From positions 1-4,292 of the IMG/VR virus record IMGVR_UViG_3300000059_000174: a stretch of DNA of 4,292 nucleotides. The stretch is one strand, 5' to 3'. The stretch is from a virus (Duplodnaviria; Heunggongvirae; Uroviricota; Caudoviricetes). Below are positions 548-3,983 of this stretch, piece after piece. The notes below the pieces were generated by a model, which saw nothing but the letters and a program-made list of their open reading frames with translations, ran no database searches and was not told the origin of the DNA. The number at the start of each line of letters is the position of its first letter. Within the stretch, counting starts at the first letter, position 1. The position numbers and the translations under genes were made by a program.

Positions 548-1618
548 TTACCCCCTGAAGCCCGGCGGAATTTCGTTATCCGGTTCAGAAATATGATTCA
601 CACAACGCTGGTTGTTCGTGCCGCTTACCGGGAGCAACCAGGGGTTCTCAAAATTCCGGTCCGGTCCAAAAAACGTCGTCGCTCGCTGAACAAATTCCGT
701 TCCCGTTTTCCCGGTAGCCGCCAGGTATCTTGCGTAACGCCTCACACCATCCAGCATGGCCTCTGGTGGCACCCCCTCGCGTAATCTGGCCTTCCAGGCA
801 CTGAAAGCGGATTTCTTCGGGTTTGCCCCGGCACGCAACGGGTACTCCCGCCAGACCTGTTCGAACACATCCGGATAATCCACTCGTCCCACAGACTGCC
901 CGGTGTTTTCCGGGACTACCCGATCGGCTTCCCGCTGAATGGCGGAATCGGCTTCAGGCTGCTGCAGTTGGTGTGATTGCTCCGGCCTTGCGGTCATCAC
1001 CTGCTGCACAGCGCCCGAATCGGCTTTCAGCGCATACGCTGAATCGGCTTCCGGTGTCGTGCCTGCTGGCTGACCAGGATTGACGGTCTGAACATCCCCT
1101 GCCTGGTTCGTGGCGTTTTTTACGCCATGGATCATAGTGTTTTGATCTTCTTGATCTGTATCTTTATCTGTATCTTTATCTGTCGTGACTCGTCGTGACA
1201 TGTGCGTGACATTTCGTGACGCGCCGTGACAATCGCCATTTTGTTCCCGCTTTCTTTCCCTCTCTCGCTGCGCCCTCTTGCGCTCTGCAGGAGATTTTGC
1301 GGTTTGCGAAATATTGCCGTTGTCCTCTTTAAGCACCTGGCGTTTTTCCCATCCAGTGATTAAATCACCATCAAGTACCCGCCCCTGCATCGTCTGCAAA
1401 ATTGAATCAATTACCTCTTCTGTCACGTCGAGCGCACTTGCCAAATCTTCTGTCGTGACATCAATGTGACCTCGCGTGACATTTCGTGACGCGCTCACCA
1501 GGAGGTGGATATACACTGCCATCACTGTTGCAATTGGCTGCCCTGACACCCTGGCAATTGTTCGCCACTTAGGGTCATTTGGCATGTCATGCCATAATCT
1601 GAGCCAGGCGTTAGCCAT
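548..1618 (-). CDS. phage replication initiation protein (O / phi80 gp15-like) with a DnaT-like (primosomal protein I-like) C-terminal domain
   Basis: Long ORF (track 548..1624). I place the start at the ATG on 1616-1618 because of the SD AAGAGGTGA just upstream; the GTG at 1622-1624 lies inside that SD. The N-terminus (MANAWLRLWHDMPNDPKWRTIARV...) looks like a winged-helix DNA-binding domain. The middle is a low-complexity acidic linker (DKDTDKDTD, PEADSA repeats). The C-terminus (...YPDVF...VNHISEPDNEIPPGFRG) closely matches, from memory, the C-terminus of E. coli DnaT (...VNTVSEPDSQIPPGFRG). Phased iterons lie inside the gene. It sits where ydaU/O sits in Rac-like prophages. Confidence 0.8.
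   Translation of the reverse strand: MANAWLRLWHDMPNDPKWRTIARVSGQPIATVMAVYIHLLVSASRNVTRGHIDVTTEDLASALDVTEEVIDSILQTMQGRVLDGDLITGWEKRQVLKEDNGNISQTAKSPAERKRAQRERERKREQNGDCHGASRNVTHMSRRVTTDKDTDKDTDQEDQNTMIHGVKNATNQAGDVQTVNPGQPAGTTPEADSAYALKADSGAVQQVMTARPEQSHQLQQPEADSAIQREADRVVPENTGQSVGRVDYPDVFEQVWREYPLRAGANPKKSAFSAWKARLREGVPPEAMLDGVRRYARYLAATGKTGTEFVQRATTFFGPDRNFENPWLLPVSGTNNQRCVNHISEPDNEIPPGFRG
922..1052. repeat. four dispersed copies of the 9-10-mer (G)A(A)TCGGCTT(C) within the initiator linker-coding region
   Basis: GATCGGCTTCC at 922-932, GAATCGGCTTC at 945-955, GAATCGGCTTT at 1017-1027 and GAATCGGCTTCC at 1041-1052. They encode the repeated peptide motifs PEADSA / KADSG / READR on the minus strand. 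Confidence 0.4.
1144..1230. repeat. candidate replication origin element: two GATC sites, a 12-bp tandem repeat (2.5 copies) and five CGTGAC iterons at 10-11 bp phasing
   Basis: GATC at 1144-1147 and 1153-1156. ATCTGTATCTTT at 1154-1165 and 1166-1177, with a partial copy at 1178-1183; this block is about 70% AT by hand count. CGTGAC at 1184, 1194, 1205, 1215 and 1225, spaced 10, 11, 10, 10 bp, so all on one helix face. The whole element lies inside the initiator coding sequence, as ori-lambda lies inside gene O. Confidence 0.6.
1422..1498. repeat. second iteron cluster: (C/T)GTGAC at 1454, 1465, 1475, 1485, a degenerate fifth copy near 1494, and an inverted copy GTCACG at 1422-1427
   Basis: The 20-mer CGTGACATTTCGTGACGCGC is identical at 1205-1224 and 1475-1494. 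Spacing is again 10-11 bp. It lies in the coding region for the N-terminal domain of the initiator; the protein accordingly carries ASRNVT twice. Confidence 0.55.
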
Positions 1619-1689: not shown

Positions 1690-2115
1690 TCAATGTACTG
1701 CCACAGCATTTCCTGCCGGACCACCACGGTTCATCTGATTGAAACCGGCGATTGCCACTGCGACAAAATCATCAGCGTCTCTCACCAGTCGCTCCCGCGT
1801 CTCCACCAGCTCCCGAAAATAAGCTGAACTGTGGCTGCGCATTCTGGCCACCAGCAAAGGTGGCATTGCCTTTTCGATTGCTGGTAACAACGCCTGAATT
1901 TTTTCAACTGCATCAGGGGTGTCTTTCTCCACCCAGCGGAAAATTTTCTGAGTATTGCGAGCCAGGGCTTCCGGATGGCTGTCGTCGTACAGTTCAGGAA
2001 ACGTCATACCCAGTTCGAAATAAGCCCTGGTTATCTCGGCTGCCGGAACTTTTTCACCGTCCGGATGCGCCCAAGCATTCATCGCCATGCGGATGTGTTC
2101 ATGCTTGATTTTCAT
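1690..2115 (-). CDS. ydaT: YdaT-like protein (cII-position early regulator of Rac-type prophages)
   Basis: 141-aa ORF beginning MKIKHEHI..., which I recall as the N-terminus typical of YdaT-family proteins. Its ATG overlaps the stop of the upstream cro-like gene (ATGA, 2112-2115), implying translational coupling. SD-like GGGAG lies 7 nt upstream. Synteny is cro-like, then this gene, then the initiator. Confidence 0.7.
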   Translation of the reverse strand: MKIKHEHIRMAMNAWAHPDGEKVPAAEITRAYFELGMTFPELYDDSHPEALARNTQKIFRWVEKDTPDAVEKIQALLPAIEKAMPPLLVARMRSHSSAYFRELVETRERLVRDADDFVAVAIAGFNQMNRGGPAGNAVAVH

Positions 2116-2372
2116 GAATCAACTCCCGCCACTTGCTGTGTGTTAGCCTGAAACTCAGCAGGCAAGCCGTCGTTTGGGTTGGGATAAATATCAGGGCGAA
2201 TTTCATGCGGGGTAACTTCCCAGCTCATTAGCTGACATAACGGAATTACCTGCTTTGGGGGAACGCCAAAGCTAAGCCATTGCCAAACAGTCTGTTGAGC
2301 GACCCCCATATAACGACCTATTTCAGCTTGAGAGAATTTCTGCCTAATTTTTTCGCGAGTGCTATCTAGCAT
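2112..2372 (-). CDS. ydaS: Cro/YdaS-like HTH DNA-binding regulator
   Basis: 86-aa ORF with a strong SD GAGGAGGG 4 nt upstream of the ATG (2370-2372 on the complement). It has an HTH segment SQAEIGRYMGVAQQTVWQWLSFGVPPK and the motif HEIRPDIYP that I associate with the YdaS/Cro-like family. It is divergent from the repressor gene across a 109-bp AT-rich intergenic region. Confidence 0.75.
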   Translation of the reverse strand: MLDSTREKIRQKFSQAEIGRYMGVAQQTVWQWLSFGVPPKQVIPLCQLMSWEVTPHEIRPDIYPNPNDGLPAEFQANTQQVAGVDS

Positions 2373-2481
2373 TTTGCCCTCCTCTAAGAACTATAGGCAA
2401 AAGACTACAATAAAAAACTGTACACAATCAACAGTTTTTTATTGTGATGCTTTTAACAGTATTTCCCTGTAAAATTAAACG
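2373..2481. promoter_or_regulatory. divergent promoter/operator region between the cro-like and repressor genes, containing the palindrome AAAACTGT-N9-ACAGTTTT (2414-2438)
   Basis: The region is AT-rich. It holds a perfect inverted repeat with 10-bp arms, AAAAAACTGT (2412-2421) and ACAGTTTTTT (2431-2440), around a 9-bp spacer. There is an extra ACAGT half-site at 2456-2460. A -10-like TAAAAT at 2470-2475 lies 7 nt before the repressor ATG. Exact -35/-10 pairs cannot be assigned with confidence. Confidence 0.6.
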
Positions 2482-2883
2482 ATGATGAACGCCTTAGAAG
2501 TATCTATGTACAGAATCAGCAAGCTTCTCCAAGAAACAGGATGGAGCCAGGCTGAGCTTGCTCGTAGAATTGGTGTGACACAACAAACTGTTCAACAATG
2601 GGTCAGCGGTAAAGCTACACCTAAAGCCTCAAGTTTGGATAAACTGGTTGAGGTTACAGGGCATCCATTGCATTGGTTTTTATTGCCTCCTGAAGAAGGT
2701 GAGCAAATCTTCACCCCTGATACGATGAAAATTGGTCCTCGCCAACGCGAACTGCTCCAGGCTTTTAGTGCGTTTCCAGAAGAAGACCAAGAAAAAATGC
2801 TTCAGGAAATCAAAGACAAGAAAAAATCAATGGAAGAAACCATTGCTCGATGGTTGGCGGCGCAAAAAATCCGCCGAGCGTGA
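2482..2883 (+). CDS. paaR2: short CI-position XRE-family HTH repressor (DicA-like / PaaR2-like), first gene of the regulator-antitoxin-toxin operon
   Basis: 133-aa ORF starting with tandem ATG ATG (2482, 2485) and no recognisable SD. N-terminal HTH: WSQAELARRIGVTQQTVQQWVSGKATPK. The C-terminal region (PRQRELLQAFSAFPEEDQEKMLQEIK...) resembles my recollection of DicA-type short repressors. There is no LexA/S24-type peptidase domain. The gene symbol rests on synteny and size only, not on an alignment. Confidence 0.8.
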   Translation: MMNALEVSMYRISKLLQETGWSQAELARRIGVTQQTVQQWVSGKATPKASSLDKLVEVTGHPLHWFLLPPEEGEQIFTPDTMKIGPRQRELLQAFSAFPEEDQEKMLQEIKDKKKSMEETIARWLAAQKIRRA

Positions 2884-2908
2884 CCAGTGAACAAAGAGGA
2901 GTTATGTC

Positions 2909-3100
2909 ATGAGTACAGCCCTTTCTCCGATAGTTTCAGAATTCGAAACTACCGAACAAGAAAACAGTTACAACGAATGGTTGCGCGCTAAAGTCGCGTC
3001 AAGCCTTGCAGATCCTCGCCCCGCAATACCGCATGACGAGGTGATGGCTGAAATGGAAAATCTTATTGCTCAAATTGCTGCGACTAGCGGGAGTGTGTAA
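2909..3100 (+). CDS. paaA2: type II antitoxin of a ParE-family toxin (PaaA2-like, 63 aa)
   Basis: 63-aa ORF with SD GAGGAG (2896-2901) 7 nt upstream of the ATG at 2909. Its stop TAA (3098-3100) overlaps the toxin ATG (3100-3102) by 1 nt (TAATG). It is small, acidic and helical in character and sits immediately upstream of a ParE-like ORF. The length matches the 63-residue PaaA2 as I recall it. Confidence 0.8.
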   Translation: MSTALSPIVSEFETTEQENSYNEWLRAKVASSLADPRPAIPHDEVMAEMENLIAQIAATSGSV

Positions 3101-3387
3101 TGCTACCCATTTTATGGCTACCATCTGCTCGCGATGATTTGCGTCAGATCGTAGCCTATATTGCCAAGGAAAATGTTCCAGCAGCTCGTAGACTAAAAAT
3201 ACGTATTGAAACGTCTGTTTTAGCCCTCTCAGAGCATCCATATCTATATCCGCCAAGTGATAGAGTATCCGGTTTGCGGGAAATTGTAGCTCACCCTAAT
3301 TATATCGTTTTGTACCGTGTAGCAGCTTCAAGCATTGAAATTGTAAATATTGTGCATGCCCGCAGACAGTTTCCCTTCCCTGCCTGA
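3100..3387 (+). CDS. parE2: ParE/RelE-superfamily toxin (ParE2-like)
   Basis: 95-aa ORF with the family-typical pattern MLPILWLPSARDDLRQIVAYIAKEN ... IVLYRV ... IEIVNIVHARR. SD GGGAG lies 6 nt upstream. It is translationally coupled to the antitoxin and followed 19 nt later by an intrinsic terminator. Confidence 0.85.
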   Translation: MLPILWLPSARDDLRQIVAYIAKENVPAARRLKIRIETSVLALSEHPYLYPPSDRVSGLREIVAHPNYIVLYRVAASSIEIVNIVHARRQFPFPA

Positions 3388-3405
3388 ACCGAAAGATTTT
3401 CACAC

Positions 3406-3429
3406 TCCCTCATACGAGGGATTTTTTTT
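3406..3429 (+). terminator. rho-independent terminator closing the repressor-antitoxin-toxin operon
   Basis: Stem TCCCTC (3406-3411), loop ATAC, stem GAGGGA (3416-3421), followed directly by eight T (3422-3429). On the minus strand there is no T-run after the hairpin, so it is unidirectional. Confidence 0.7.
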
Positions 3430-3445
3430 GCCAAAAAAACAATTT

Positions 3446-3470
3446 AAAACTGTTGACACCAAACAGTTTT
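3446..3470. promoter_or_regulatory. second copy of the operator palindrome AAAACTGT-N9-ACAGTTTT with an embedded -35 hexamer TTGACA (OL/PL-like site)
   Basis: AAAACTGT at 3446-3453, 9-bp spacer, ACAGTTTT at 3463-3470. The arms and spacing are the same as the site at 2414-2438. A consensus -35 TTGACA sits at 3453-3458. The -10 is unclear (TAGTTT-like around 3477-3482). Confidence 0.55.
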
Positions 3471-3579
3471 TAATTGTAGTTTGTTTTCACAAACCACCCC
3501 GTCCCACAGAATGCAGGGCAATACTTCGAGTTACCAGGCAGTGGTCAGGGGTTAAGTAGCCAGCCCGAGGCGTAAGAAC

Positions 3580-3813
3580 ATGACGGCAGGGTTCAACTTT
3601 AATAACTATGCAGCAGGTTTTTGTTCCGCTACCCCGGCGTTAAGGGGAAATGAGGTCAGCATGGATACTATCGATCTTGGCAACAACGAATCTCTGGTGT
3701 GCGGCGAGTTCCCCAACCAGGACGGTACGTTCACCGCGATGACATATACCAAAAACAAAACGTTTAAAACCGAATCTGGCGAGCGTCGCTGGTTAACCAG
3801 AAACACTGACTGA
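3580..3813 (+). CDS. small hypothetical protein; more likely start at ATG 3661 (50 aa) than at 3580 (77 aa)
   Basis: The ORF is on the strand expected for transcription from the PL-like promoter. The internal ATG at 3661 has SD GAGGT (3652-3656) 4 nt upstream; the ATG at 3580 has only GAGG 9 nt upstream. Stop TGA at 3811-3813. No recognisable family. Confidence 0.4.
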   Translation: MTAGFNFNNYAAGFCSATPALRGNEVSMDTIDLGNNESLVCGEFPNQDGTFTAMTYTKNKTFKTESGERRWLTRNTD

Positions 3814-3824
3814 TGAGGCTGACG

Positions 3825-3983
3825 ATGGAATTTAAAGATTTACCTCCAGACACTCAGAAAATCGCCGCAGAAACACTGAAATCTCTCATTTTGGACGAGG
3901 AGACAGAAAAGGTAGAGCCAGCTAAAAAACTGGCTCAAGAAATCAGAGAAGCCTTTATTGCTCTTTATCAGTCTTCTCCATAG
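3825..3983 (+). CDS. small hypothetical protein (52 aa), not in the supplied ORF track
   Basis: ATG at 3825 with SD GAGG (3815-3818) 6 nt upstream, 12 nt after the previous stop. It translates to MEFKDLPPDTQKIAAETLKSLILDEETEKVEPAKKLAQEIREAFIALYQSSP, ending at TAG 3981-3983. The sequence is charged and helical in character. Confidence 0.4.
   Translation: MEFKDLPPDTQKIAAETLKSLILDEETEKVEPAKKLAQEIREAFIALYQSSP

Follow-up and report, generated by a model that had tools for sequence, protein, structure and literature searches.

Putative OR and OL operator sets around a repressor-paaA-parE operon in a prophage immunity region of CP-933M type

Direct experimental precedent for the locus described here comes from the paaR2-paaA2-parE2 region of prophage CP-933P, in which an OR/OL architecture has been established (PMC8630535). 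Footprinting, EMSA and gfp fusions showed that PaaR2 and YdaS bind OR (Jurenas et al., mBio 2021, PMC8630535). Both proteins repress PR and PL, the latter lying beyond the toxin-antitoxin (TA) operon, and PaaR2 at low level activates PRM (PMC8630535). Leaderless translation of paaR2 was demonstrated by 5' RACE and N-terminal sequencing (PMC8630535). The same architecture is established for dicA/dicBp of Qin (PMC10448788), with one operator set between dicA and dicC and a further one at the promoter into ydfA...dicB (PMC10448788, PMC3441716). DicA represses dicBp upstream of ydfA; ydfABC-dicF-dicB is transcribed from this promoter, and ydfA-like genes come first in the dicB operon (PMC10448788). 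In phage 434 the operators are of the form ACAAT-N4-ATTGT, with three 14-bp sites each in OR and OL (PMC1636474).

The window analyzed here, a whole stretch of 4,292 nucleotides, belongs to a lambdoid E. coli prophage of CP-933M type and comprises its immunity region. It matches the homolog that was placed on CP-933M in the CP-933P study, which left the CP-933M operators unstudied (PMC8630535). A first-pass annotation had noticed one palindrome on both sides of a repressor-TA operon and likened the two copies to lambda OR and OL. That comparison is supported, with the paaR2-paaA2-parE2 region of CP-933P as its precedent (PMC8630535). With high probability the palindromes represent OR and OL operator sets of a lambdoid immunity switch of PaaR/DicA type, and this lambda-like switch very probably carries a ParE TA pair. 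An OR/OL arrangement with a TA operon has already been demonstrated in the sister prophage; the window holds no new kind of thing, and its switch changes no concept. It extends the experimentally characterized PaaR2 switch to a more widespread sister immunity type and places the operators and promoters of the CP-933M type on a precise map that can be tested, which helps to annotate the regulatory circuits of prophages and to predict co-immunity among resident prophages. A full-text literature search with the operator strings found no relevant paper.

Genes of the immunity region and their relatives

The gene roles named in the first-pass annotation hold: the repressor proves to be an HTH_3 protein, the cro-like protein belongs to YdaS, and the TA genes encode a PaaA antitoxin and a ParE toxin (Table 1). 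The PaaR-PaaA-ParE order is present as three genes on the same strand with a single intrinsic terminator after parE, and a terminator in this place is also found in relatives. The window also contains the operator of YdaT, TTGATT-N6-AATCAA (PMC9986795).

The repressor combines an N-terminus with a 434-like HTH, recognition helix VTQQTVQQW, and a C-terminal domain in common with PaaR2. Among solved structures the 434 repressor matches it best (E = 2e-5), with the Q-Q-x-x-x-Q helix aligned and identity confined to the HTH. In 434 the base-contacting residues are Gln28, Gln29 and Gln33. Equivalents of all three are kept in the TQQTVQQ of the window, compared with TQQSIEQ in 434 repressor chains 2R63 and 1PER. 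Over its C-terminal 98 aa the repressor shares 42% identity with PaaR2 (E = 5e-21), while the N-terminal DNA-binding domain could not be aligned with it; PaaR2 was absent from the matches of the repressor in the PDB sequence search. Pfam analysis of the 133-aa protein found HTH families in the N-terminal part and no Peptidase_S24, and the two C-terminal matches were sub-threshold and unrelated (OpuAC, Metal_resist). The protein thus does not have the C-terminal S24 domain of a cleavable lambda CI/LexA-like repressor. The match to the DicA model of NCBIfam, NF007257, covers residues 11-129 at 52.1 bits, under its cut-off of 101.

The repressor is 97% identical to that of an O157:H7 locus, L001, which, going by its map position, is probably the CP-933M paaR1. 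The paaR1 gene was reportedly first described by Hallez et al. in 2010. Of 5426 complete E. coli genomes, 508 carry the repressor gene, O157:H7, O26 and O121 strains among them.

The window and CP-933P share the gene order ydaT, ydaS (leftward), repressor-paaA-parE (rightward), terminator, PL and ydfA-like genes. They have homologous PaaA, ParE, YdaT with its operator, and repressor C-terminal domain, and in both the OR operators recur at a PL promoter just past the TA operon. The N-terminal DNA-binding domains of the two repressors are unrelated in sequence, however, and the sites of the window are 15-bp ACA-N9-TGT elements, three at OR and two at OL, whereas CP-933P has GTTTAGT-type 18-bp repeats with four IRs/three operators at OR and three operators at OL.

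Resemblance to the dicA-dicC region of Qin lies in a short repressor of DicA type that lacks a cleavage site, a divergent cro-like gene, and a putative PL that leads into a ydfA homolog. The DicA operator Oc, TTGTTAGTCATAACTAACAA (PMC3441716), is unrelated to the sites of the window, however, and Qin has no TA pair between dicA and dicBp. With phage 434 the window shares the ACAAT half-site and an A/T-rich uncontacted center (434 reference operator, PMC1636474), a recognition helix common to repressor and Cro, and a tripartite OR with centers about 24 bp apart. It differs in the 133-aa repressor, which has a PaaR/DicA-type helical C-terminal domain and no RecA-sensitive S24 domain, in having two clear OL sites rather than three, and in 15-bp sites rather than 14-bp ACAA-N6-TTGT; the dimer geometry must therefore differ from that of 434.

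As in lambda, PR and PRM diverge, three operators lie 23-25 bp apart, a second operator set lies at PL, and a leaderless repressor mRNA is predicted from PRM. Cargo genes co-transcribed with the repressor gene lie between it and OL, and the TA pair is cargo in the position of lambda rexAB. Unlike in lambda, the cargo is a ParE TA pair, the repressor, Cro and operators have no sequence homology to their lambda counterparts, there is no S24 autocleavage domain, and octamer formation and looping are only predicted. The locus also shows ParE TA pairs to be interchangeable cargo within the OR-OL bracket of an immunity region.

Operator sites and promoters

Table 1. Positions of genes, putative operators and putative promoters in the window.
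Feature	Position	Strand	Remarks
CII-like gene ydaT	1690..2115	-	YdaT operator TTGATT-N6-AATCAA at 2105-2122
cro-like gene, YdaS family, 86 aa	2112..2372	-	recognition helix VAQQTVWQW, close to that of the repressor
putative PR	2402..2431	-	-35 TTGATT (2431 to 2426), 18-nt spacer, -10 TAGTCT (2407 to 2402)
OR1, putative operator	2407..2421		ACAATAAAAAACTGT; fills PR spacer; last base begins PR -10
OR2, putative operator	2431..2445		ACAGTTTTTTATTGT; exact reverse complement of OR1
OR3, putative operator	2456..2470		ACAGTATTTCCCTGT; within PRM spacer; last T is first base of PRM -10
putative PRM	2470..2484	+	-10 TAAAAT (2470-2475), 6 nt, repressor ATG 2482
repressor gene, 133 aa, PaaR1/CP-933M type	2482..2883	+	HTH_3 protein
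paaA antitoxin gene, 63 aa	2909..3100	+	PF21217, E = 2.8e-22; PDB 3ZBE (PaaA2), E = 6e-23
parE toxin gene, 95 aa	3100..3387	+	PF05016, E = 1e-16
intrinsic terminator of repressor-paaA-parE operon	3406..3429	+	stem 3406-3421, T run to 3429
OL2, putative operator	3439..3453		ACAATTTAAAACTGT; last T is first base of PL -35
putative PL	3453..3482	+	TTGACA, 18-nt spacer, TAGTTT
OL1, putative operator	3463..3477		ACAGTTTTTAATTGT; fills PL spacer; last T is first base of PL -10
first PL-operon genes	3580..3983	+	ydfA-like DUF1391 gene; 56-aa ORF (3813-3983)

The palindrome AAAACTGT-N9-ACAGTTTT occurs exactly twice with zero mismatches, at 2414-2438 and 3446-3470, against 0.01 matches expected (200 dinucleotide shuffles, 0 of which held at least 2); even at 2 mismatches there is no third copy in the window. 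As the first-pass annotation had stated, one copy lies between the divergent cro-like and repressor genes and the other just past the terminator; the latter copy is 10 bp away from the terminator, and its spacer opens with TTGACA (3453-3458). Each 25-bp copy is nested in a 39-bp palindrome, at 2407-2445 (perfect 15-nt arms) and at 3439-3477, a symmetry larger than the one first described.

The 25-bp element had been taken as the operator, with one in each region; it proves to be merely the inner halves of two adjacent 15-bp sites. The conserved unit is ACA(A/G)T-N5-A(C/T)TGT, a 15-bp pseudo-palindrome resembling the phage 434 operator, and therefore OR has three sites (2407, 2431 and 2456) and OL two (3439 and 3463). 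Matches to ACA-N9-TGT number 5 in the window against 1.06 expected, all 5 within OR or OL. Three of them occupy the 109-bp gap between the divergent repressor and cro-like genes (2373-2481), with centers 24 and 25 bp apart, and overlap putative PR and PRM. The other two bracket TTGACA-18-TAGTTT (3439-3482), a putative PL that reads away from the operon. Putative PR and PL are homologous cassettes. OR3 had been missed in the first pass.

Putative PR reads into the cro-like gene. Its -10 agrees with the consensus at 3/6 positions and was not called by the promoter scan; the layout TTGA(T/C)(T/C)-18-TA(G/A)NCT is kept in L001, L045, L046 and L047. OR2 lies directly between the PR -35 and a weak PRM -35 region. 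As an alternative PR -10, the minus-strand hexamer TATAGT (about 2390-2395) was weighed and rejected, since it lacks a -35 and is not kept in L045-L047. For PRM, the -10 is separated by 6 nt from the repressor ATG, ahead of which there is no Shine-Dalgarno sequence, and a leaderless repressor mRNA is therefore predicted. The paaR2 locus (L004) has the identical layout of -10, 6 nt and ATG, and in L047 the scan called PRM as ATGATA-17-TAAAAT.

The PL -10 likewise has 3/6 consensus positions and falls below the promoter-scan threshold; in relatives the scan called PL as TTGACA-18-TAGATT (10/12) in L003 and as TTGACG-17-TAGATT in L047. The first-pass expectation that a second promoter reads into the small genes past the operon is supported, in that putative PL leads to a ydfA-like (DUF1391) gene, whose true start is likely ATG 3661 (stop 3813). 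The dicB gene lies further downstream in L001. Only two clear sites are present at OL, whereas lambda, 434 and CP-933P have three; a third candidate at about 3489-3503 (ACAAACCACCCCGTC) was rejected as too weak and as lying in the shared leader. The conserved PL leader (3488-3665), when folded, showed no unusual structure (z = 0.54), and no Rfam family matched anywhere in the window at E <= 1; an RNA element in this leader is not supported.

Conservation, covariation and alternative readings

An IMG/VR scan was much more productive of relatives than a scan of genome contigs with one genome per species, which returned a single relative, from Arsenophonus. The helix TQQTVQQW is encoded by 50 sequences, the window and 49 loci. 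In helix-bearing loci with 69-100% repressor identity, 15-mers stand at -75, -51 and -26 from the repressor ATG, OR1 staying at -75 in all loci that share the helix, and past the operon TTGAC(A/G) is flanked by a pair of 15-mers. The Arsenophonus locus (49% repressor identity) has OR sites at -79 and -30, a middle site with one mismatch (ACAATAAATTCTTTT) and an OL pair. The first-pass annotation had named conservation in orthologous prophages as a check. The 15-mers pass it, holding position down to 49% repressor identity, whereas the same relatives vary in the 25-bp palindrome and in the distance from site to site. Among five diverged OR regions, 57-76% identical overall, the outer ACA/TGT columns are invariant at 18/18 positions, compared with 10/27 for site positions 4-12, 6/19 for the spacers between sites and 5/37 for the left flank.

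These comparisons bear on a simpler reading, in which OR and OL have one site each, the 25-bp palindrome being the only operator there and taking up one repressor dimer. The two copies in the window do have identical arms and identical 9-bp spacing, and the 39-bp mirror symmetry of OR is kept through parallel changes in diverged lineages, which leaves room for a larger symmetric unit. The inner arms of L046 and L047, however, no longer form that palindrome, while the outer ACA/TGT triplets are invariant, and the gap between the inner arms at OL ranges from 8 to 10 bp, which is hard to square with one rigid dimer. The reading also leaves out the outer half-sites ACAAT/ATTGT and the third site at -26, all of which are conserved. 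On geometric grounds, the ACTGT/ACAGT cores, centered 14 bp apart, would fall off one helix face; the halves of the 15-mer, 10 bp apart, would be separated by one helical turn. A single operator per region is judged unlikely, and a set of 15-bp sites is preferred.

The palindromes might instead be structural elements, such as back-up terminator hairpins, cruciforms or recombination hot spots at the edges of the immunity module. The OL palindrome of L003 was flagged as a weak terminator-like hairpin, and homology between heteroimmune prophages resumes right past OL, at about 3490, so that OL coincides with a mosaic boundary. The OR copy, on the other hand, is upstream of both predicted transcription starts and so would be left out of the transcripts, the stems consist almost wholly of A/T, and the OL regions of L045-L047 lose stem complementarity but keep the ACA/TGT triplets and promoter hexamers. 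The sites also change along with the repressor and cro recognition helices, as would not be expected of pure structure, and we regard this explanation as very improbable. Even less credence is given to occupation of the sites by another factor (the cro-like protein alone, YdaT, or a host protein such as Fis or IHF) with the 133-aa protein regulating elsewhere. Fis and IHF prefer A/T-rich DNA, and the sites are A/T-rich, but a host-factor site should not vary with prophage immunity type, the known YdaT site of the window is elsewhere and unrelated to the 15-bp sites, and the ACAAT half-site suits the 434-like Q-Q-x-x-x-Q helix of the repressor.

Covariation was seen across three immunity types that have common flanks, geometry and repressor C-terminal domain and differing recognition helices, each type having its own site at both OR and OL. 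Beside the type of the window, loci L050-L053 have the repressor helix VAQQSVQKW and the cro helix LPQQVVSRW, with ACACT-N5-AGTTA-type sites at OR and OL alike and geometry unchanged, and in the PaaR2 type OR and OL each have GTTTAGT repeats. Phage phi467, whose repressor differs in its helix and has a C-terminal domain of S24 type, served as a negative control; it has ATCAAGT-type repeats upstream and downstream of the repressor gene, and no ACA-N9-TGT in the regions around that gene. In one pair of types, the residue equivalent to 434 Gln33 is Gln in the first and Lys in the second, and operator position 4 is A/G in the first and C in the second.

Proposed regulation

For the immunity type of the window, occupancy and regulation can be reasoned from the related systems, and binding by the repressor and cro-like protein, the order of site filling, activation, looping and the transcription starts are predictions on that basis. 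Each 15-bp pseudo-palindrome is probably occupied by a single repressor dimer. Repressor on OR1 and OR2, flanking the PR -35 and filling the PR spacer, would turn off the cro-like/ydaT/replication operon, and repressor on OR2, beside the weak PRM -35, could activate the leaderless repressor-paaA-parE transcript. At high repressor level, OR3 in the PRM spacer would mediate autorepression; it would also mediate repression by the cro-like protein, whose recognition helix is nearly that of the repressor. The OL pair brackets TTGACA in like manner and would repress PL, which is predicted to read the ydfA-like genes and later dicB/kil-type genes. PaaR2 forms octamers in solution. The C-terminal domain is common to the repressor and octameric PaaR2, and looping between OR and OL over about 1 kb is therefore plausible.

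The C-terminal domain, promoter geometry and 15-bp operator format form a scaffold that is constant across types. The types could tentatively be seen as a natural series of recognition-helix swaps on this one scaffold, with single helix and operator changes tracking each other and OR1-OR2 as a concerted 39-bp unit, a proposal that we hold with low confidence. OR1 and OR2 mirror each other across lineages, central bases included. The mirroring is a hint that the 39-bp element could function as a single unit, and it is unexplained by a simple picture of independent dimers; concerted evolution of OR1 and OR2 would suggest a dimer of dimers that senses the orientation of the central A-tract, as opposed to two independent dimers.

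Operator-like sites on both sides of the repressor operon

The Pfam assignments of the genes (see table), together with the near-identity of YdaT to PDB 3C4R (~99%) and the match of PaaA to PDB 3ZBE, identify the window as the immunity and replication region of a lambdoid E. coli prophage, carrying a three-gene repressor-paaA-parE operon. The first-pass annotation reported two copies of a 25-bp palindrome, AAAACTGT-N9-ACAGTTTT, one between the divergent cro-like and repressor genes and one after the operon terminator, overlapping TTGACA. This description is confirmed. Both copies are exact, the window holds no further match with up to two mismatches allowed, and shuffled sequence contains 0.01 on average. 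A repeat finder extends both to 39 bp, the first with perfect 15-nt arms, and aligns the OR and OL regions to each other over 47 nt in inverted orientation.

The accompanying likeness to lambda OR and OL is supported, with a smaller unit, a 434-like site of 15 bp that is present three times at OR and twice at OL. The best solved-structure match of the repressor is the 434 repressor. Its TQQTVQQ aligns with TQQSIEQ of 434, so that the glutamines at 434 positions 28, 29 and 33 are all retained, and the corresponding helix of the cro-like protein reads AQQTVWQ. Operators of 434 have the form ACAAT-N4-ATTGT, with the outer bases contacted (PMC1636474); each arm of the 39-bp palindrome is a pseudo-palindrome of this kind, longer by one base pair in the centre, ACAATAAAAAACTGT. 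Exactly five matches to ACA-N9-TGT are present in the window, against 1.06 expected. Start-to-start distances are 24 and 25 bp at OR and 24 bp at OL, which is the spacing of the lambda OR sites. The two half-sites of a 15-mer have their centres 10 bp apart, facing the same side of the DNA; for the inner cores in the 25-bp palindrome this distance is 14 bp.

Features of the window. Empty cells indicate that no value is given.
Feature	Coordinates	Strand	Remarks
DUF977 gene			leftmost gene (Pfam)
O-like replication gene	548-1624	minus	
CGTGAC(A) repeats	1149-1230; 1452-1490		iteron-like
YdaT			141 aa; YdaT (Pfam)
OM, YdaT operator	2105-2122		TTGATT-N6-AATCAA
cro-like gene	2112-2372	minus	86 aa; YdaS family (Pfam)
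Putative PR	2431 to 2426; 2407 to 2402	minus	TTGATT, 18-nt spacer, TAGTCT
OR1, OR2, OR3	start 2407; 2431; 2456		ACA-N9-TGT
First 25-bp palindrome	2414-2438		39-bp form 2407-2445
Putative PRM -10	2470-2475		TAAAAT
Repressor gene	2482-2883		133 aa; HTH_3 (Pfam)
PaaA			63 aa; PaaA2, PF21217 (Pfam)
ParE			95 aa; ParE (Pfam)
Operon terminator	3406-3429		
OL2, OL1	start 3439; 3463		ACA-N9-TGT
Second 25-bp palindrome	3446-3470		39-bp form 3439-3477
Putative PL	3453-3458; 3477-3482		TTGACA, 18-nt spacer, TAGTTT
PL-ydfA leader	3490-3660		
ydfA-like ORF	3580-3813		77 aa as listed; DUF1391, ydfA (Pfam); first gene past second palindrome

We infer the operator mechanism from homology and comparative analysis. 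The first T of the putative PL -35 element belongs to OL2 as well, and OL1 fills the spacer and provides the first T of the -10; putative PR repeats this cassette on the minus strand. A promoter scan calls PL in relatives, which have TAGATT, and does not call it in the window. OR3 lies within the spacer of putative PRM, and OR2 is centred at about -44 relative to the predicted PRM start. The PRM -10 is invariant and is followed by 6 variable nt and the repressor ATG, with no Shine-Dalgarno sequence ahead of this ATG. The paaR2 gene of the O157:H7 prophage CP-933P has the same layout (-10, 6 nt, ATG); its mRNA is leaderless, and leaderless translation has been demonstrated (PMC8630535).

Conservation and covariation among relatives

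The comparison set consists of 49 IMG/VR loci, one Arsenophonus genome locus and three E. coli loci. In loci whose repressor carries the helix TQQTVQQW (identity 69-100%), 15-mers lie at -75, -51 and -26 relative to the repressor ATG, and a further pair flanks TTGAC(A/G) past the end of the operon. In the Arsenophonus locus (49% repressor identity) the OR sites lie at -79 and -30 with a one-mismatch site between them, and an OL pair is present. Across five diverged OR regions, 57-76% identical overall, the outer ACA/TGT columns are invariant (18/18), compared with 10/27 for site positions 4-12, 6/19 for inter-site spacers and 5/37 for the left flank. The gap between the OL 15-mers is 8, 9 or 10 bp, and the inner arms of the 25-bp palindrome differ in two relatives (L046 and L047). 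The conservation in related prophages that had been proposed as a check is found for the 15-mers, which keep their positions, and not for the 25-bp palindrome.

OR1 agrees with the reverse complement of OR2, central bases included, at 15/15 positions in the window, 14/15 in L046, 13/15 in L047 and 12/15 in Arsenophonus, and the two arms show parallel substitutions across lineages. Selection for a symmetric tetramer site could cause this mirror symmetry, as could homogenisation of the palindrome arms.

Loci L050-L053 from IMG/VR (67% repressor identity) share the C-terminal domain, the toxin-antitoxin pair and the flanks with the window. Their helices are VAQQSVQKW (repressor) and LPQQVVSRW (cro), and their sites are of the type ACACT-N5-AGTTA, at OR (~2410-2480 in L050) and on either side of TTGACA at OL (~3455-3495 in L050). 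Relative to the window, Lys occupies the 434 Gln33 position (QQSVQKW) and operator position 4 is C in place of A/G; in all else this heteroimmune sibling has the same geometry and cargo. Phage phi467, whose helix is different again, carries repeats of the ATCAAGT type on both sides of its repressor gene, and ACA-N9-TGT is absent from these regions. Such covariation of helix and operator is the classical mark of immunity specificity, and it is the strongest computational evidence that the sites are repressor/cro operators.

Exchangeable module and published sister systems

In most loci the interval from the repressor gene to OL contains paaA-parE. L035 and L038 lack the toxin-antitoxin genes, L047 has an unrelated 134-aa ORF and an opposite-strand 81-aa ORF, and Arsenophonus has nothing in this interval. 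OL shifts with this content, and the toxin-antitoxin pair is therefore cargo within the OR-OL bracket, as is rexAB in lambda.

The sister operon paaR2-paaA2-parE2 of CP-933P was studied by Jurenas et al. (mBio 2021, PMC8630535). PaaR2 and YdaS footprint its 97-bp intergenic region and both repress PR and PRM, low PaaR2 activates PRM, and PL beyond the toxin-antitoxin operon has three matching operators and is repressed by both proteins (PMC8630535). In the K-12 prophage Qin, dicBp lies upstream of ydfA and is repressed by DicA (PMC10448788), and operator sets flank dicA on both sides (PMC10448788, PMC3441716). Because of these precedents, the OR/OL idea is the already established architecture of this prophage family; the window is a heteroimmune member of it, and the novelty is modest.

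PaaR2, compared through the module of phage Evi, shares only the C-terminal 98 residues with the window repressor (42% identity); in the DNA-binding domain the two are unrelated. The operators accordingly differ, those of Evi and CP-933P being GTTTAGT repeats, at OR and again past parE2. Homology between the two types resumes directly past OL, at ...CCACCCCG(C/T)CCCACAGAA(C/T)GCAGGGCAATACTTCGAG, and an E. coli-wide search gives the same boundary (~3490); the operators therefore mark the edge of the exchangeable immunity module. The CII-like/PRE module matches that of CP-933P although immunity specificity differs, since the window has, across the cro-like gene end and the ydaT start, an exact copy of OM, the site footprinted for CP-933P YdaT (PMC9986795). 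The PL-ydfA leader is ~90-99% identical in ~3700/5426 complete E. coli genomes, in prophages of different immunity types. Rfam gives no match to it and its predicted folding is unremarkable; to assign it a role in antitermination, nut- or put-like, would be a guess.

Occurrence in E. coli and further features

The repressor gene occurs in 508 of the 5426 complete E. coli genomes at ~93% DNA identity, O157:H7 among them. The Xuzhou21 repressor protein is 97% identical to that of the window, and this locus is probably the CP-933M homologue named in the paaR2 paper (PMC8630535). The annotated Xuzhou21 homologue of the ydfA-like ORF begins at the position that corresponds to ATG 3661 rather than ATG 3580; ATG 3661 is preceded by GAGG and would give a 50-aa DUF1391 protein. 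The E. coli genome closest to the window repressor region is A8 (98.9% identity). Its cro-like gene is annotated as frameshifted (2227-2500 of the A8 locus), which suggests that this prophage can no longer leave the repressed state. Within the O-like replication gene lie the two CGTGAC(A) clusters, 260 bp apart, and a 12-bp tandem repeat detected by the repeat finder; this region is probably the prophage replication origin.
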